Of a DNA stretch of 64,000 nucleotides, positions 11,028 to 15,026 are shown piece by piece (position 1 is the stretch's first letter; every line of letters starts with the position of its first letter). The stretch spans positions 8,428 to 72,427 of the forward strand of contig JAGWLA010000004.1 in the NCBI GenBank assembly GCA_028865095.1, written 5' to 3'. Source of the DNA: Patescibacteria group bacterium. GTDB lineage: Bacteria; Patescibacteriota; Minisyncoccia; Phycocordibacterales; PALSA-1337. The position numbers and the translations under genes were made by a program. Below the pieces are notes generated by a model. That model worked only from the letters and a program-made list of their open reading frames with translations, did no database searches and was not told the DNA's origin.

Positions 11028-14000
11028 TTACTTGTCAACTACGATGAGGTTGACCAGCCTGCCGGGCACCACGATGGCCCGCGCGACGGCCGTGCCCGCC
11101 GTCCATCTGGCGGCTTCGGGCGACGCCTTCGCCAGTCGCTCGAGCTCGTCGTTCCCTGCCCCGGTCCCCGCCTTGAATGAGCCGCGGGTCTTGCCGTTCA
11201 CTTGAAGGATGATCGTCTGCTCCCCTTCGGCGTCCAGCGCCGGGTCATGCGCGGGCCAGGCAGCGACATGGATGGACCCTTTGTTGCCGAGCCGGGCCCA
11301 TAGCTCTTCGGCGGCGTGCGGCGCGAACGGCGCGAGCAGCTTCACGTATGCCTCGTATGCTTCCCGGCCGATCTCTTCGAGCTTCTCGAGCTCGTTAGCG
11401 GCGATCATGAGGGAGCTAATGGCGGTGTTGAAGCGCAGGCCGTCGATGTCGTCGGCGACTTTCTTGGCGGCTTTGTTCACGATGCGGGCGGCGGCGGCAT
11501 CCCCCTTATCCGAAGCCGCTTTGTCGGCCAGCCTCCATACCCGTTCGATGAATCTCCGCGGCCCGGCTATGCCTTTGGTGGACCAGGCGATGGACTGGTC
11601 GAACGGGCCCATGAACATCTCGTAGACGCGCAGGGTGTCCGCCCCGTACGCTTTGACGATGTCGTCGGGGTTGACGACGTTGCCGAAGCGCTTGGACATC
11701 TTCCGGCCGTCCTCGCCCATGATGAGGCCGACGGACTGGAGCTTGGCGAACGGCTCGATGCCGGAGACGGCGCCGATGTCGTACAGGAATTTATGCCAGA
11801 AGCGGGCGTATATGAGATGCCGCGTGGCGTGCTCGGCGCCGCCGACGTAGAGGTCCACTGGCGACCAGTACTCCTCCTTTCTCCTATCTACTAGCTCCTT
11901 GCGATTCTTCGGGTCCATGTAGCGCAGGTAGTACCAGCACGAGCCCGCCCACTGCGGCATGGTGTTGGTCTCGCGGCGCCCTTTGCCGCCGCACCGGGGG
12001 CACTTGACGTTGACCCATTTGGCGATGCTCGCGAGCGGCGATTCGCCGGTGCCTGTGGGCTCGTACGACTCGACCTTCGGCAATTTGACCGGCAGATCCT
12101 TCTCGGGGACGGGCACGACGCCGCACTTCTCGCAATGGATGAGCGGGATGGGCTCGCCCCAATAGCGCTGGCGCGAGAATACCCAGTCGCGCAGCTTGTA
12201 GCGCGTCACCCAGCGCCCGCCGGCGGCAGCCGCGATCTCTTTTTTGACGGAGTCGGAGTCCTTGCCAGTGAAGGGGCCGGAGCCCATGAGCGTCCCGGCG
12301 CCGGTGAACGCGGTCTCCTTGTAGAGGCTCTTGTCGCTCGTCGTGTCTATGCCGCGCTCGATCAGGCGGCCGACGCCTTGCTTCATAAGATGGATCCAGT
12401 GCTCCGCTCCATGATCCTCGCGCTTATTCCAGCTGGCGATGGCTTCGTCGGCGGTCACCCATTTCAGGACCATCTTCTTTTCATGGTCTTCAAGCTTGGT
12501 CGGCTTGGTCTTGGTGGAGTTGGCTACGATGAGGAGGCATGTCGCGTGCGCGACGCGATCGAGGTTCTTGCTCTGGTGATGATAGTGGGCATTGACTTCT
12601 CCCATGTTCTCGATCGATTTGAAATCATGGAGGCCCGTCTCCTCTTCTGTTTCGCGGAGGACGGTCGTCCTCGGGTCTTCGCCGGGCTTCATCCCTCCCG
12701 ACGGCAACAGAAGCCTCATCTCGCCGCCCGACTCTGTTTCGATCGCGGCATATCTCTGGGCGACCGGATCGAAGACGATCGAGCAACCGCCGTCGGCGAA
12801 CTGCTCGTTCGGGCGCTTGATGCCGAATTCGGGGATGATGACCTGCTTGACCGGCAGCCCGAACTTCTTGGCGAAGGCGAGGTCGCGGTCGTCGTGGGAG
12901 GGCACGGCCATGACGGCGCCGGTGCCATAGTCCGACAGGACATAATCGGCGATCCATACCGGGACCTCCTCGCCATTCGCGGGATTGACGGCGTGGATAC
13001 CCTTGAGCTCGACGCCGGTCTTCTCTTTGGACGCATCCGTGCGCTCTATGTCCGTCTCGCGCTCCGTAGCGGCTATGTATGCCTCCGCCTCTGCCCTGTT
13101 CACGACCTGTGGTAGCAGCTCTTTCACCCACGGATGCTCCGGCGCGAGCACCACATAGGTCACGCCGTAGAGGGTGTCAGGGCGCGTGGTGAAGACGGTG
13201 ACGGAAGGGGTGACGGCTTTGAGTATGTCAGGCTCCTCTGCGCCGTTGAAGTGTTTGAGGATGGCCCGCGTCTCAATCAGCCGTGCCGAGAGCTTCCCTG
13301 CCAGATGCTTGAGGTAAGGAGCTCGATGATCTTCTGTCAGGTCCGAAAGGACGGCGATTTTTCCGCCGGTCAGTTCTTTGATCCGTCCGTAGTCATAATC
13401 CCAGGTGAAAGTCTTATGGAATGCCCTCGGCTTCGCGTCTTTCGAGAATCCCGGTTCGATCGCCGGCGCCACCAGCACGAGGCCGGAGATCGGCTTGTCG
13501 AGCTTCATCAATGCCTTCATGGCCACCACTCCCCCGAGGCTATGGCCGACCAGCACGGTATCTTCGTCGAAACGGCAGCTTTTGAGCAGGTGCTCTACCT
13601 GCTCCTTCTCTCGCGGATCGTTCCGGCCCGGCAGCTCCGGCGCTTCGACTTCGTGGCCGCGCTTCTCGAGCTCGGCTTTCAGCCACGGGAAGAAGTCGTC
13701 CTTCGGGCTCCCTTTGTAGCCGTGGACCAGCACGAACCGCGTCTTCTGCGATGCGACTTTCAGCCTGAAATCGATCTCGGCGCCTTCGCTCCGTCCGATC
13801 CAGTTGCGCTGGGCTTCTTTGATGGACTCGGGCCAATCGAGGAGAGGCTTTTGCTCGATCGCCCCGGTGAACACATCCCATTCATATTTCAAATCATCCC
13901 GATTCACGAACTCTCGGACTTGTTCGCGAGGCACCCATTCCATATCCTGGATGTCTTTTTCGTGCTCCGGGACCTCGCCCCGTTCCCCGTCCTGCAATTC

Positions 14001-15026
14001 GATATAGACGGTGGTGATGAAAGCGCGGCGGTTCTCTTTCTTTATCTGCTGGTAGAATTCAGCCGTCATTCTGCTGACGACCCGTTTGAATGAAGCGTTC
14101 TTGTAGCCGGTCTCTTCCATGACCTCTCGCAGGGCGGTCTCACGGACCGATTCGCCGTCTTCGATGCCGCCGATGACGAAGCCTCGCCAATCGTTCTTCT
14201 TCCATTTCATGCATAAGAAGGAATCGTCCTTCCAGTGCTTGATGAGGCAATGGACGACGTGCCGCTCTGATACGGGCATATCAGTCCTGAAAGCGTCGGA
14301 ACCTGTCGTATTGGTGAATATGGGAGCTTCCACGGCATCGAGGTCGCGCAGCAGCCGGTCGGCATAGTCGGTGATCTTGAGCACCCACTGGCGCAGAGGC
14401 TTCTTCTCGACGGGCGTGCCGCAGCGCTCGCAGCGGCCGTTCTCGACGTCTTCGTTGGAGAGGACGGTCTTGTCGGTCGGGCACCAGTTGACCGGCTCAT
14501 AGGATTCGAACGCCAGGCCCCTCTTCCACATCTGCAAGAAAGCCCACTGCGTCCATTTGTAGTAGGCAGGGTCGGTGGTGTTGACCTCGCGGGACCAGTC
14601 GTAGTCGAGGCCGATGACTTCGAGCTGCTCCTTGAAGCGGGCCACGTTCTTCTTCACGGCGATCTCGGGGTCGGTCTTGGTCTTGATGGCGTAGTTCTCC
14701 GCGGGCAGGCCGAAGGCGTCGAAGCCCATGGGATGCAAGACGTTCTTGCCCTGCATCCTCTTCATGCGCGACACGACGTCGGTGGCGATGTAGCCTTTGG
14801 GGTGGCCGACGTGAAGGCCTTCGCCGGAAGGATACGGGAACATGTCGAGGACGTAGAATTTGCCCCTCCTTTCTCCCTTCTCCTTTCTCCCTGCTTCTTG
14901 CGACTTATACACCTTCAAAGCGGCCCATTTTTTCTGCCACTTCTTCTCTATCGCAGCCGGGTCGTAGGCGGGGGCCTCGAGCGGCTTCTTCTTCGATGCG
15001 GCGCGAGGCGCGCGGGGCTTTTCCAT
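11028..15026 (-). CDS. leuS: Leucyl-tRNA synthetase with three inserted catalytic domains (1332 aa)
   Basis: PYPSGEGLHVGHPKGY (HIGH region), KMSKRFGNVV (KMSKS), TTRPDTLYGVTY and GTGAVMAVPSHDDRD (CP1 editing landmarks), RDWVFSRQRYWGEPIP; C-terminus ...GRLVNLIVVDK matches the LeuRS tail. About 450 aa longer than canonical bacterial LeuRS. Confidence 0.9.
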   Translation of the reverse strand: MEKPRAPRAASKKKPLEAPAYDPAAIEKKWQKKWAALKVYKSQEAGRKEKGERRGKFYVLDMFPYPSGEGLHVGHPKGYIATDVVSRMKRMQGKNVLHPMGFDAFGLPAENYAIKTKTDPEIAVKKNVARFKEQLEVIGLDYDWSREVNTTDPAYYKWTQWAFLQMWKRGLAFESYEPVNWCPTDKTVLSNEDVENGRCERCGTPVEKKPLRQWVLKITDYADRLLRDLDAVEAPIFTNTTGSDAFRTDMPVSERHVVHCLIKHWKDDSFLCMKWKKNDWRGFVIGGIEDGESVRETALREVMEETGYKNASFKRVVSRMTAEFYQQIKKENRRAFITTVYIELQDGERGEVPEHEKDIQDMEWVPREQVREFVNRDDLKYEWDVFTGAIEQKPLLDWPESIKEAQRNWIGRSEGAEIDFRLKVASQKTRFVLVHGYKGSPKDDFFPWLKAELEKRGHEVEAPELPGRNDPREKEQVEHLLKSCRFDEDTVLVGHSLGGVVAMKALMKLDKPISGLVLVAPAIEPGFSKDAKPRAFHKTFTWDYDYGRIKELTGGKIAVLSDLTEDHRAPYLKHLAGKLSARLIETRAILKHFNGAEEPDILKAVTPSVTVFTTRPDTLYGVTYVVLAPEHPWVKELLPQVVNRAEAEAYIAATERETDIERTDASKEKTGVELKGIHAVNPANGEEVPVWIADYVLSDYGTGAVMAVPSHDDRDLAFAKKFGLPVKQVIIPEFGIKRPNEQFADGGCSIVFDPVAQRYAAIETESGGEMRLLLPSGGMKPGEDPRTTVLRETEEETGLHDFKSIENMGEVNAHYHHQSKNLDRVAHATCLLIVANSTKTKPTKLEDHEKKMVLKWVTADEAIASWNKREDHGAEHWIHLMKQGVGRLIERGIDTTSDKSLYKETAFTGAGTLMGSGPFTGKDSDSVKKEIAAAAGGRWVTRYKLRDWVFSRQRYWGEPIPLIHCEKCGVVPVPEKDLPVKLPKVESYEPTGTGESPLASIAKWVNVKCPRCGGKGRRETNTMPQWAGSCWYYLRYMDPKNRKELVDRRKEEYWSPVDLYVGGAEHATRHLIYARFWHKFLYDIGAVSGIEPFAKLQSVGLIMGEDGRKMSKRFGNVVNPDDIVKAYGADTLRVYEMFMGPFDQSIAWSTKGIAGPRRFIERVWRLADKAASDKGDAAAARIVNKAAKKVADDIDGLRFNTAISSLMIAANELEKLEEIGREAYEAYVKLLAPFAPHAAEELWARLGNKGSIHVAAWPAHDPALDAEGEQTIILQVNGKTRGSFKAGTGAGNDELERLAKASPEAARWTAGTAVARAIVVPGRLVNLIVVDK
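12312..12794 (-). other. Inserted Nudix-hydrolase domain 2 within leuS (aa ~745-905)
   Basis: Nudix box GGMKPGEDPRTTVLRETEEETGL; lies between the end of the CP1 editing domain and KLRDWVFSRQRYWG. Confidence 0.7.
13212..13745 (-). other. Inserted alpha/beta serine-hydrolase domain (RBBP9/YdeN-like) within leuS (aa ~428-605)
   Basis: FVLVHGYKGSP..., nucleophile elbow VGHSLGG, ...GLVLVAP; lies between RNWIGRSEGAEIDF and TVFTTRPDT. Confidence 0.65.
13857..14294 (-). other. Inserted Nudix-hydrolase domain 1 within leuS (aa ~245-390)
   Basis: Nudix box GGIEDGESVRETALREVMEETGY; lies between the LeuRS catalytic-core segment and the conserved RNWIGRSEG motif. Confidence 0.7.

Follow-up and report, generated by a model that had tools for sequence, protein, structure and literature searches.

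We begin by considering leuS, a gene in a 64,000-nucleotide stretch of DNA from a Patescibacteria group bacterium (GenBank assembly GCA_028865095.1, contig JAGWLA010000004.1), which we call the window. The open reading frame (ORF) at 11028..15026 on the minus strand, 1332 amino acids (aa) and a stop codon, very probably encodes a functional leucyl-tRNA synthetase (LeuRS) that hosts intact, exchangeable hydrolase cassettes. Three such enzymes, two Nudix hydrolases and one alpha/beta serine hydrolase, are inserted in frame into a synthetase of the bacterial type, and relatives of the protein carry cassettes of these kinds at the same positions. In what follows we examine the host protein and its inserts, the distribution and exchange of the cassettes among relatives, and the functions that the cassettes may have.

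The synthetase core and its three inserts

An original prediction, read from the letters of the window, had named the ORF a LeuRS on account of its HIGH, KMSKS and editing motifs, and the profile search bears this out. The NCBIfam model TIGR00396 (leuS_bact) gives the 1332-aa protein 965 bits against a cut-off of 548.4, the motifs lie at verified coordinates, and the reading frame is unbroken from end to end. In the whole protein, Pfam recognizes tRNA-synt_1_2 (PF13603, the editing domain, 1.9e-55), tRNA-synt_1 and Anticodon_1, together with NUDIX in two stretches (1.4e-27) and Ser_hydrolase (PF06821, 3.3e-11). The limits of the inserts are taken from a residue-level alignment to the Thermus thermophilus LeuRS (PDB accession code: 1H3N, E = 4e-195; Tt in the numbering below), which consists of five collinear blocks with three clean insertions between them and which divides the protein into a core of 810 aa and inserts of 522 aa together.

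Following the chain from its N-terminus, with all positions on the minus strand, the core opens with aa 1-231 (14334..15026, aligned to Tt 3-209), the N-terminal Rossmann half with the ZN1 region, which carries the HIGH motif as HVGH (aa 72-75, nt 14802-14813) and ends at ...DYADRLLRDLDA. The cassette of slot 1, a Nudix hydrolase (aa 232-395, 13842..14333), is lodged between Tt 209 and 210 and has its Nudix box, GGIEDGESVRETALREVMEETGY, at aa 286-308 (nt 14103-14171). A short core segment of aa 396-422, LDWPESIKEAQRNWIGRSEGAEIDFRL (13761..13841, aligned to Tt 210-236), forms the linker strand into CP1 and leads to the cassette of slot 2, a YdeN/RBBP9-type alpha/beta serine hydrolase (aa 423-608, 13203..13760) in place of Tt 237-242, with the nucleophile elbow GHSLG at aa 494-498 (nt 13533-13547) and a triad of Ser496, Asp562 and His592. 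The core of the CP1 editing domain comes next (aa 609-731, 12834..13202, aligned to Tt 243-363 and matched by Pfam tRNA-synt_1_2), with the threonine-rich editing motif TTRPDT (aa 613-618, nt 13173-13190) and the HDDRD that includes the editing aspartate (aa 711-715, nt 12882-12896). The cassette of slot 3, a second Nudix hydrolase (aa 732-903, 12318..12833), replaces Tt 364-373 and has its Nudix box, GGMKPGEDPRTTVLRETEEETGL, at aa 777-799 (nt 12630-12698). It had been predicted to follow the end of CP1; the alignment instead places it inside CP1, about 40 CP1 residues before the domain ends. The remaining core, aa 904-1332 (11031..12317, aligned to Tt 374-579 and 638-876), comprises the end of CP1, the second Rossmann half, and the anticodon-binding and C-terminal domains, and includes RDWVFSRQRYWG (aa 946-957) and the KMSKS motif as KMSKR (aa 1109-1113, nt 11688-11702). 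Two further slots, 4a (~aa 969/970) and 4b (~aa 1014/1015), are defined from relatives and are empty in the window gene.

Apart from the inserts, the protein looks like any other bacterial-type LeuRS (TIGR00396; PDB accession codes: 1H3N, 4AQ7, 6Q89): it has the full core, CP1 after ZN1, HIGH and KMSKS, the threonine-rich and aspartate motifs of editing, and the anticodon-binding and C-terminal domains. It is ~50-55% identical to the Bacillus-type LeuRS, which likewise lacks the leucine-specific domain, and the absence of that domain was therefore rejected as a peculiarity of the window protein. The HIGH, KMSKS and editing residues are invariant or nearly so across 111 relatives, the synthetic and editing sites being conserved alike. 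An AlphaFold2 model of aa 20-1160 has a mean predicted local distance difference test score (pLDDT) of 89.2 and a predicted template modelling score of 0.78, with the inserts mostly above 90. When this model is submitted to Foldseek, only solved LeuRS structures are matched and the core superposes on them, and none of the LeuRS structures among the matches bears such inserts. What sets the window protein apart from the solved structures is therefore the additional 522 residues, three enzyme domains at points that are surface loops of only 0-10 residues in canonical LeuRS. As judged from the 64 kb of genome at hand, the protein is probably the organism's working LeuRS.

The two Nudix inserts and the one serine hydrolase insert of the RBBP9/YdeN type had been called from motifs, and each finds support when it is scanned alone. 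The Pfam matches are NUDIX (1.4e-15), Ser_hydrolase (2.1e-12) and NUDIX (8.9e-14) in slots 1 to 3; both Nudix inserts pass the PF00293 gathering threshold of 21.1 bits, with 57.9 and 52.1 bits, and the slot-2 insert passes that of PF06821 (22 bits) with 47.8 bits. The full Nudix box (GX5EX7REUXEEXGU, with its catalytic glutamates) is present in both Nudix cassettes, and the catalytic motifs are intact in all three inserts. Against the PDB, the slot-2 cassette matches YdeN (1UXO) at 1.2e-9 and RBBP9 at 6e-5. The slot-1 cassette modelled alone with AlphaFold2 reaches a pLDDT of 95.8 and the cassette has the alpha/beta/alpha fold of the Nudix class; the check by profiles and structure prediction that had been proposed thus comes out in favour of Nudix and alpha/beta-hydrolase folds, with confident models.

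Could the extra length be an artefact of an assembly join or a frameshift, or an intein-like element that is spliced out? The unusual length itself is the one thing that speaks for it. No interruption is seen in the reading frame, over 100 independent homologs drawn from NCBI, JGI, ENA and Logan bear cassettes at identical slots, and AlphaFold2 models the inserts as well-packed domains. The query and the Pfam lists for the 120 relatives described below contain no family of the Hint, LAGLIDADG or HNH kind, and the cassette borders (DA/VEAP...KPL/LDW, RL/KVAS...TPS/VTV and II/PEFG...LYK/ETA, with a slash at each border) lack the Cys/Ser/Thr or His-Asn residues of a splice junction. Each cassette consists of its hydrolase domain only, with no intein, endonuclease, transposase or recombinase domain within it, and the repeats at the cassette borders of leuS are merely short ones at chance level. 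On the sequence data, an artefact or a spliced element is hence hardly credible, and the absence of intein hallmarks that had been reported for this ORF holds. Because of that absence, the inserts are predicted to stay in the mature protein of ~150 kDa.

The inserts had also been described as somewhat less GC-rich than the core, in keeping with later acquisition. The G+C content at third codon positions (GC3) is indeed 0.74 in the inserts (0.69-0.78 in single cassettes) compared with 0.86 in the core, and this fits import from relatives of mostly lower G+C content. The dip is real inside leuS, yet it is no outlier within the window, where the list of genes for comparison included a few doubtful frames, and as a sign of foreign origin we have rejected it.

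Slot occupancy and cassette exchange among relatives

We turn our attention to the relatives of the window protein. A search of 5.8 billion proteins, in a database clustered at 90%, provides the 120 best relatives, which make a set of 121 proteins with the query. Wherever the source is named, these relatives all come from Patescibacteria, that is, the candidate phyla radiation (CPR), with Parcubacteria, Paceibacterota, Taylorbacteria, Vogelbacteria and Woesebacteria among the names. NUDIX and/or Ser_hydrolase domains are found in every one of the 120, HAD domains in some, and the lengths range from 946 to 1564 aa; examples with the plain name of LeuRS have been public since 2015 (e.g., KKR13732.1 / UniRef100_A0A0G0RJC7). 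The original prediction had asked whether the inserts are lineage-wide or unique. They are not unique, since all 120 listed relatives from Patescibacteria bear such inserts at fixed slots, and on the evidence of these sequences the architecture is widespread in Patescibacteria rather than peculiar to the window genome. A canonical LeuRS of ~810 aa is found, in a scan of GTDB species, in representatives of Falkowbacteria, Kaiserbacteria, Moranbacteria, Vogelbacteria and Nealsonbacteria and in Bacilli, and none of the GTDB species representatives has a LeuRS more than ~60% identical (best segment) to that of the window. Long tblastn spans in four of the loci (L062, L068, L072 and L075) were considered as giant leuS genes and rejected, the length being due to a neighbouring class I synthetase.

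Occupancy of the slots was mapped by placing the five core blocks on each relative; an empty slot then has ~0-20 residues and a filled one a near-constant size. Slot 1 (query 231/396) holds one Nudix domain of ~165-185 aa in 57 of the 121 proteins and two tandem Nudix units, ~335 aa together, in another 22. The hydrolase of slot 2 (query 422/609, ~186 aa) is present in 53 proteins and the Nudix domain of slot 3 (query 731/904, ~155-172 aa) in 88. The remaining two slots are rarely filled: in 3 proteins slot 4a (~query 969/970) contains another YdeN-like hydrolase or different small modules (73-188 aa), and in 8 proteins slot 4b (~query 1014/1015) contains a HAD domain of ~210 aa with a DxD motif. 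Two of the slot-4a modules, aa 777-903 (127 aa) of relative P0102 and aa 749-821 (73 aa) of relative P0074, are neither Nudix, hydrolase nor HAD. Altogether there are 14 occupancy patterns among the 121 proteins. The three-slot pattern of the window recurs in 11 independent relatives (12 of 121 with the query), which answers the concern about an assembly artefact, and the most loaded LeuRS seen, from a Taylorbacteria MAG in the scan of GTDB species (1735 aa at 1501-6582 of PLXZ01000004.1; locus L014, Candidatus Taylorbacteria palsa_1337), has five inserted enzymes: slot 1 holds two Nudix units, slot 2 the hydrolase, slot 3 one Nudix unit and slot 4b a HAD domain.

The next question is whether the cassettes are still enzymes in these relatives or whether some of them are catalytically dead. 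The mean identity of the cassettes is merely 30-47%, and the catalytic residues are invariant: Ser496, Asp562 and His592 each in 53 of 53 slot-2 cassettes, E301, E305 and G307 in 100% of the 57 slot-1 cassettes, and E792, E796 and G798 in 100% of the 88 slot-3 cassettes. A strict Nudix box is found in 43 of the 57 and in 80 of the 88, respectively, and the DxD nucleophile motif is retained in all 8 HAD cassettes. Nine pairs with a cassette type in common were compared, and in seven of them the non-synonymous divergence (dN) of the cassette is no greater than that of the core. The invariant residues indicate that the cassettes are catalytically competent enzymes kept under selection, so far as this can be read from conservation.

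Are the cassettes inherited along with their host gene? Over all pairs, cassette identity is essentially independent of core identity, the Spearman correlation between the two being 0.09, 0.44 and 0.00 in slots 1, 2 and 3, respectively. The clearest case is a pair of relatives from the same metagenome, P0046 and P0009, whose cores are 95% identical overall and reach 96-100% in most windows of 30 columns. Slot 1 of P0009 contains one more Nudix unit, the slot-1 unit that the two share is ~45% identical, and the slot-3 cassettes are of different types, ~20% identical, with very sharp boundaries. On the DNA, the leuS core and the downstream genes are 87-92% identical and the alignment is lost only across the two cassettes. 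A nucleotide divergence of ~10% cannot yield an amino-acid identity of 20-45% by drift, and therefore the cassettes of this pair have been replaced.

The window gene itself gives a similar picture. In slot 1 its cassette shares 82% identity with the one in P0002, and in slot 3 the identity to the cassette of P0006 is 81%; the cores of these two relatives are only 73% identical to the core of the window protein, while the proteins with the closest cores (76-79%) are without these cassettes or have cassettes 27-46% identical. The window leuS thus reads as a mosaic, with cassettes that match those of distant hosts better than those of close ones.

To see how general this is, we count without a tree. 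Among pairs with 80-95% identical cores, slot occupancy differs in 52-66%, and where a slot is shared the cassettes are less than 50% identical in 53-67% of the comparisons. Parsimony on a neighbour-joining tree of the core requires at least 22, 15 and 25 state changes for slots 1, 2 and 3. When cassettes are grouped by single linkage at 50% identity or more, 31 of those from slot 3 fall into one cluster with all of those from slot 1, and tandem doubles exist; one Nudix type has therefore moved or been duplicated between slots. Slot 3 alone has at least 15 cassette types, to one of which the cassette of the window belongs. Whole alleles may travel as well: ~3.9 kb over leuS (7581-11480 in locus L001, the same coordinates in L002) is 99.7% identical between two loci that have different upstream neighbours and an identity of 77-94% in the adjacent genes, which indicates a recent recombination of the whole leuS allele, barring assembly chimerism. 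No signal of recombination tracts reaching into the flanking core was found, the flanks being 83-93% identical in all comparisons. A further observation concerns the contig that carries P0009 (L003), where an rve-family transposase (2721-3683) and a phage-type integrase (5941-6858) are located upstream of leuS; both are absent from the syntenic L001 and L002.

These comparisons show that the cassettes enter and leave their fixed slots, and are duplicated and swapped, without regard to the history of the host gene. We could not find a description of such behaviour for any tRNA synthetase. The original prediction knew of no described LeuRS with this architecture, and the searchable literature indeed offers no description of a LeuRS that hosts several unrelated hydrolases at several exchanged slots; in a survey of domain insertions from 2026, the editing domain of LeuRS figures as an insert only and never as a host, and Nudix is left unmentioned. 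Extra catalytic domains in synthetases as such are already known. The accreted CP1, ProRS INS/YbaK and AlaX domains are likewise additional enzymatic domains, inserted in frame and retained in the mature protein, and the NCBIfam entry NF040702, 'isoleucine--tRNA ligase, N-acetyltransferase domain-containing', which we know here by its family name, denotes an extra (GNAT) domain in the isoleucyl enzyme. Those additions, however, are fixed in a lineage and of a single domain type, whereas the family of the window combines several hydrolase folds in several slots and exchanges them; a LeuRS with several swappable hydrolases would be new. The in-frame insertion in an essential gene, the patchy presence at fixed sites and the horizontal spread also recall inteins and Rickettsia palindromic elements, from which the cassettes differ in that they lack splicing and homing domains, junction residues and flanking repeats and are full enzymes with conserved active sites instead of short repeats.

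What could drive such turnover? One answer would be conflict: the cassettes would be defensive or counter-defensive enzymes placed beside the editing domain, neutralizing attacks on LeuRS or tRNA-Leu (by antibiotics that mimic the adenylate, by toxins that add an acyl or pyrophosphate group to the 3' end of the tRNA, or by ADP-ribosylation), and the turnover would be that of an arms race. The dynamics resemble those of defence genes: each slot has many divergent types, cassettes are often gained, lost or replaced between hosts that are nearly identical, and they spread horizontally. Pyrophosphatase, esterase and phosphatase chemistries could undo known modifications of nucleotides and of the tRNA 3' end (toxSAS, GNAT toxins and TM84 come to mind), four slots are in or adjoining CP1, which handles the CCA end of the tRNA, and CPR bacteria and DPANN archaea are obligate episymbionts exposed to the antagonism of their hosts. 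On the other side, the neighbourhood of leuS is one of conserved housekeeping genes in which no adjoining toxin, immunity or defence genes were seen (no PADLOC scan was made), there is no substrate evidence toward modified tRNA, and the catalytic residues are conserved. We consider this explanation unlikely.

Cassette kin and proposed functions

To place the cassettes among other proteins, the slot-1 Nudix domain was searched exhaustively with HMMER against 1.84 billion cluster representatives, which gives 472 clusters at E<=0.001 and 184 at <=1e-10; the hosts were surveyed for the 148 new representatives within the best 150 of the 472 matches. LeuRS or LeuRS fragments account for 104 of the 148, and 5 of the remaining 44 are also LeuRS fragments. 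About 35 representatives stand free as small proteins (154-207 aa), another consists of three Nudix domains, and one (P0286) is a class II prolyl-tRNA synthetase (ProRS) with the cassette between its anticodon-binding and C-terminal domains. No kind of host other than LeuRS and ProRS was identified among these best 150 matches. The ProRS with Nudix is a family of five members (P0286 and P0291-P0294; 641-674 aa), the nearest cassette-free relatives of which are ~485 aa long, 71-80% identical and labelled Nanoarchaeota/Woesearchaeota (DPANN archaea). The slot-1 Nudix subfamily occurs in LeuRS and in ProRS, two unrelated synthetases, and the cassette therefore spans CPR bacteria and DPANN archaea, the two groups of ultra-small episymbionts. 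A 716-aa relative of this ProRS, P0378, has in addition a B3_4 domain (PF03483) in its Pfam list.

The free-standing Nudix relatives correspond to the entire cassette, with the N-terminal leader that characterizes it, and the cassette is therefore a complete small protein. The slot-2 hydrolase has free-standing YdeN-like relatives as well, of 176-226 aa and 30-41% identity. It shares with YdeN of B. subtilis (1UXO) and RBBP9 (PF06821) the minimal alpha/beta-hydrolase of ~185 aa with a Ser-Asp-His triad, and it differs in being inserted in the CP1 of a LeuRS rather than free-standing, at ~30-40% identity to the free-standing relatives. In one locus (L084) a YdeN-like gene directly follows a Nudix gene, with another Nudix gene and a HAD-like fragment nearby; as a link to the cassettes this adjacency is suggestive, those Nudix genes being generic. 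Nudix genes near leuS in other relatives were examined as possible kin of the cassettes and rejected, since they match the cassette profiles at the Nudix box only.

That free-standing equivalents exist allows another explanation, in which ordinary hydrolase genes became lodged in the tolerant loops of a constitutive essential gene and are gained and lost neutrally and by recombination in genomes that are small and evolve fast, with no relation to the function of LeuRS. The short surface loops at the insertion sites, the dispensability of the cassettes and the unrelated modules at slot 4a agree with mere passengers. It would be unexpected in a random process, however, that among the best 150 matches the Nudix subfamily is embedded only in synthetases (LeuRS, and ProRS of another domain of life), that the same few enzyme classes recur, and that the catalytic residues are kept across deep divergence. 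We are inclined to doubt this explanation, to about the same degree as that of conflict.

Turning to what the cassettes may do, synthetases release pyrophosphate, and they also convert aminoacyl-AMP and ATP to diadenosine tetraphosphate (Ap4A). The best PDB sequence match of the slot-1 Nudix is the Aquifex Ap4A hydrolase (3I7U, 1.4e-6). Its Tyr325 lies 17 residues after the Nudix box, and this 'fy' position is conserved in 50-80% of the slot-1 and slot-3 cassettes; a tyrosine ~17 residues downstream of the box reportedly marks the subfamily of diadenosine polyphosphate (ApnA) hydrolases, which we use as a lead only. The identity of the cassette to the ApnA hydrolases of Aquifex (3I7U), T. thermophilus (Ndx1, 1VC8) and M. 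tuberculosis (Rv2985, 9CXX), and to an uncharacterized Nudix protein of E. faecalis (2AZW), is only 14-22%, and it differs from those enzymes in being embedded in a synthetase and in a leader and KHW...WKK / K..NR motifs that are common only to its relatives in Patescibacteria and DPANN. For the serine hydrolase, human RBBP9 is reported to be a valacyclovir (valine ester) hydrolase (Shenoy et al. 2020, as cited in PMC7730578).

An esterase of this kind in a synthetase also brings to mind built-in trans-editing, which the original prediction had suggested as a possibility beside the clearing of alarmones and in which the esterase, and perhaps the Nudix domains, would hydrolyse mischarged aminoacyl-tRNA or a non-cognate aminoacyl-adenylate as an extra proofreading step. 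The esterase is located at the entrance of CP1, its family includes the amino-acid-ester hydrolase just named (RBBP9, with valacyclovir, as far as that citation goes), and LeuRS and ProRS both require editing. The canonical CP1 editing site is fully intact, however, hence there is no obvious need for a second one; the esterase is absent from many close relatives, and Nudix enzymes cut pyrophosphate bonds and not acyl-phosphate or ester bonds. Extra proofreading seems to us quite improbable.

Combining the above, our preferred explanation is as follows. The window protein is very probably a functional LeuRS with three autonomous small hydrolases in permissive surface loops in and around its CP1 editing domain. 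These belong to a pool of cassettes for which there are at least five fixed slots: a Nudix subfamily specific to Patescibacteria and DPANN and a serine esterase of the YdeN/RBBP9 type, joined in relatives by a HAD phosphatase. Within this pool, cassettes come and go, double in tandem, change slots and replace one another. Exchange would proceed by homologous recombination between diverged leuS alleles via the highly conserved flanks of the core; we infer this mechanism because, with no homing or splicing machinery and no significant flanking repeats, general homologous recombination is the most economical route. The Nudix units would cleave dinucleoside polyphosphates such as the Ap4A made by the synthetase, and the esterase would cleave aminoacyl or acyl esters, although the substrates and a functional coupling to LeuRS are suggested weakly by the sequence matches. 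We put the probability of the whole explanation, a working LeuRS with exchangeable hydrolase cassettes that would clear away synthetase by-products, at roughly 0.5; its structural and evolutionary part is very probable by itself.

Several points weigh against this explanation. The patchy and fast-turning cassettes are dispensable for LeuRS, and strict clearing of by-products fits this less well than an accessory or conflict role does. The synonymous divergence (dS) is saturated in all nine usable pairs, so that no dN/dS ratio could be obtained. The clustering of the database at 90% enriches discordant pairs among highly similar cores in the tree-free census, the neighbour-joining tree behind the parsimony counts is only approximate, and metagenome chimeras could mimic the whole-allele identity of L001 and L002. 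The genome may also have a second leuS outside the 64 kb of the window.

If the Nudix, esterase and HAD units do act on Ap4A, pyrophosphate, aminoacyl esters or the tRNA 3' end, damage-control or repair enzymes would be physically wired to the very enzyme that is the source. Synthetases are highly conserved and additions of domains to them are usually seen as slow and lineage-defining; here an essential synthetase serves as a modular scaffold with fast replacement (unrelated cassettes in 95% identical cores), up to five extra enzymes and combinatorial occupancy, and it does so in CPR bacteria, whose genomes are minimal, as are those of the DPANN archaea with the ProRS. Such proteins provide a direct way to test by experiment what the Ap4A made by synthetases does, a matter of long debate, and naturally validated permissive insertion sites in LeuRS that are useful in protein engineering, and they give a warning that LeuRS as a phylogenetic marker in CPR genomes includes horizontally exchanged segments. 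A still broader proposal, which we offer tentatively and which may well go too far, is that the LeuRS of Patescibacteria and the ProRS of DPANN archaea are platforms for unrecognized exchangeable in-frame hydrolase cassettes (Nudix, YdeN-type esterase, HAD), shuffled by recombination, that would act jointly on synthetase products and tRNA, possibly in the clearance of Ap4A and pyrophosphate and in the repair or deacylation of a damaged or toxin-modified tRNA 3' end, with a turnover driven by conflict with hosts, phages and antibiotics.

Gene neighbourhood and other features of the window

The neighbourhood of leuS is kept between the window and its relatives, with YchF and G6PD on one side and sigma70_r4/HARE-HTH, DUF8128 and YceG on the other; given the conserved gene order, leuS therefore sits at its normal chromosomal place. 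Immediately downstream of leuS is the sigma70_r4 and HARE-HTH protein (9847-10893, minus strand), followed by a protein of the DUF8128 type (8527-9801, minus strand) that has no Pfam hit at 1e-5 and is named after the DUF8128 found in syntenic relatives. The order of leuS, sigma70_r4/HARE-HTH and DUF8128 is the same in all the relatives examined.

Two stand-alone Nudix genes toward the far end of the window had been noted together with the inserts as a sign of unusually dense Nudix paralogs. Both genes are confirmed by Pfam, at 62455-63132 (3e-15) and, overlapping it, at 63110-63580 (3.9e-22), both on the minus strand (62455-63580 together). The implied connection does not stand: the two genes match the cassette profiles around the Nudix box only and belong to a different subfamily, so that the local density of Nudix genes is unrelated to the cassettes. 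A similar tandem Nudix pair is found beside a UDG gene ~7 kb downstream of leuS in L001-L003.

The G+C content of the window is 61.6%, which we take to be unusually high for a Patescibacteria genome, and GC3 is ~0.85-0.93 in housekeeping genes. Between 18141 and 19327 there are six tRNA genes on both strands (Val-CAC, Pro-GGG, Ala-GGC, Pro-CGG, Ala-CGC and Ala-TGC), that is, three Ala and two Pro isoacceptors in a cluster of 1.2 kb. Two long ORFs, 35474-37075 (plus strand, 533 aa) and 46156-47976 (minus strand, 606 aa), have no Pfam match at 1e-5 and are candidate genes, the second with a low GC3 of 0.56. Finally, UvrC (22937-24541), UvrA (24960-27590) and UvrB (32166-34376) are encoded within 12 kb, all on the minus strand; the GIY-YIG domain of UvrC begins at residue 139, and the ORF of UvrA is merely 876 aa long.

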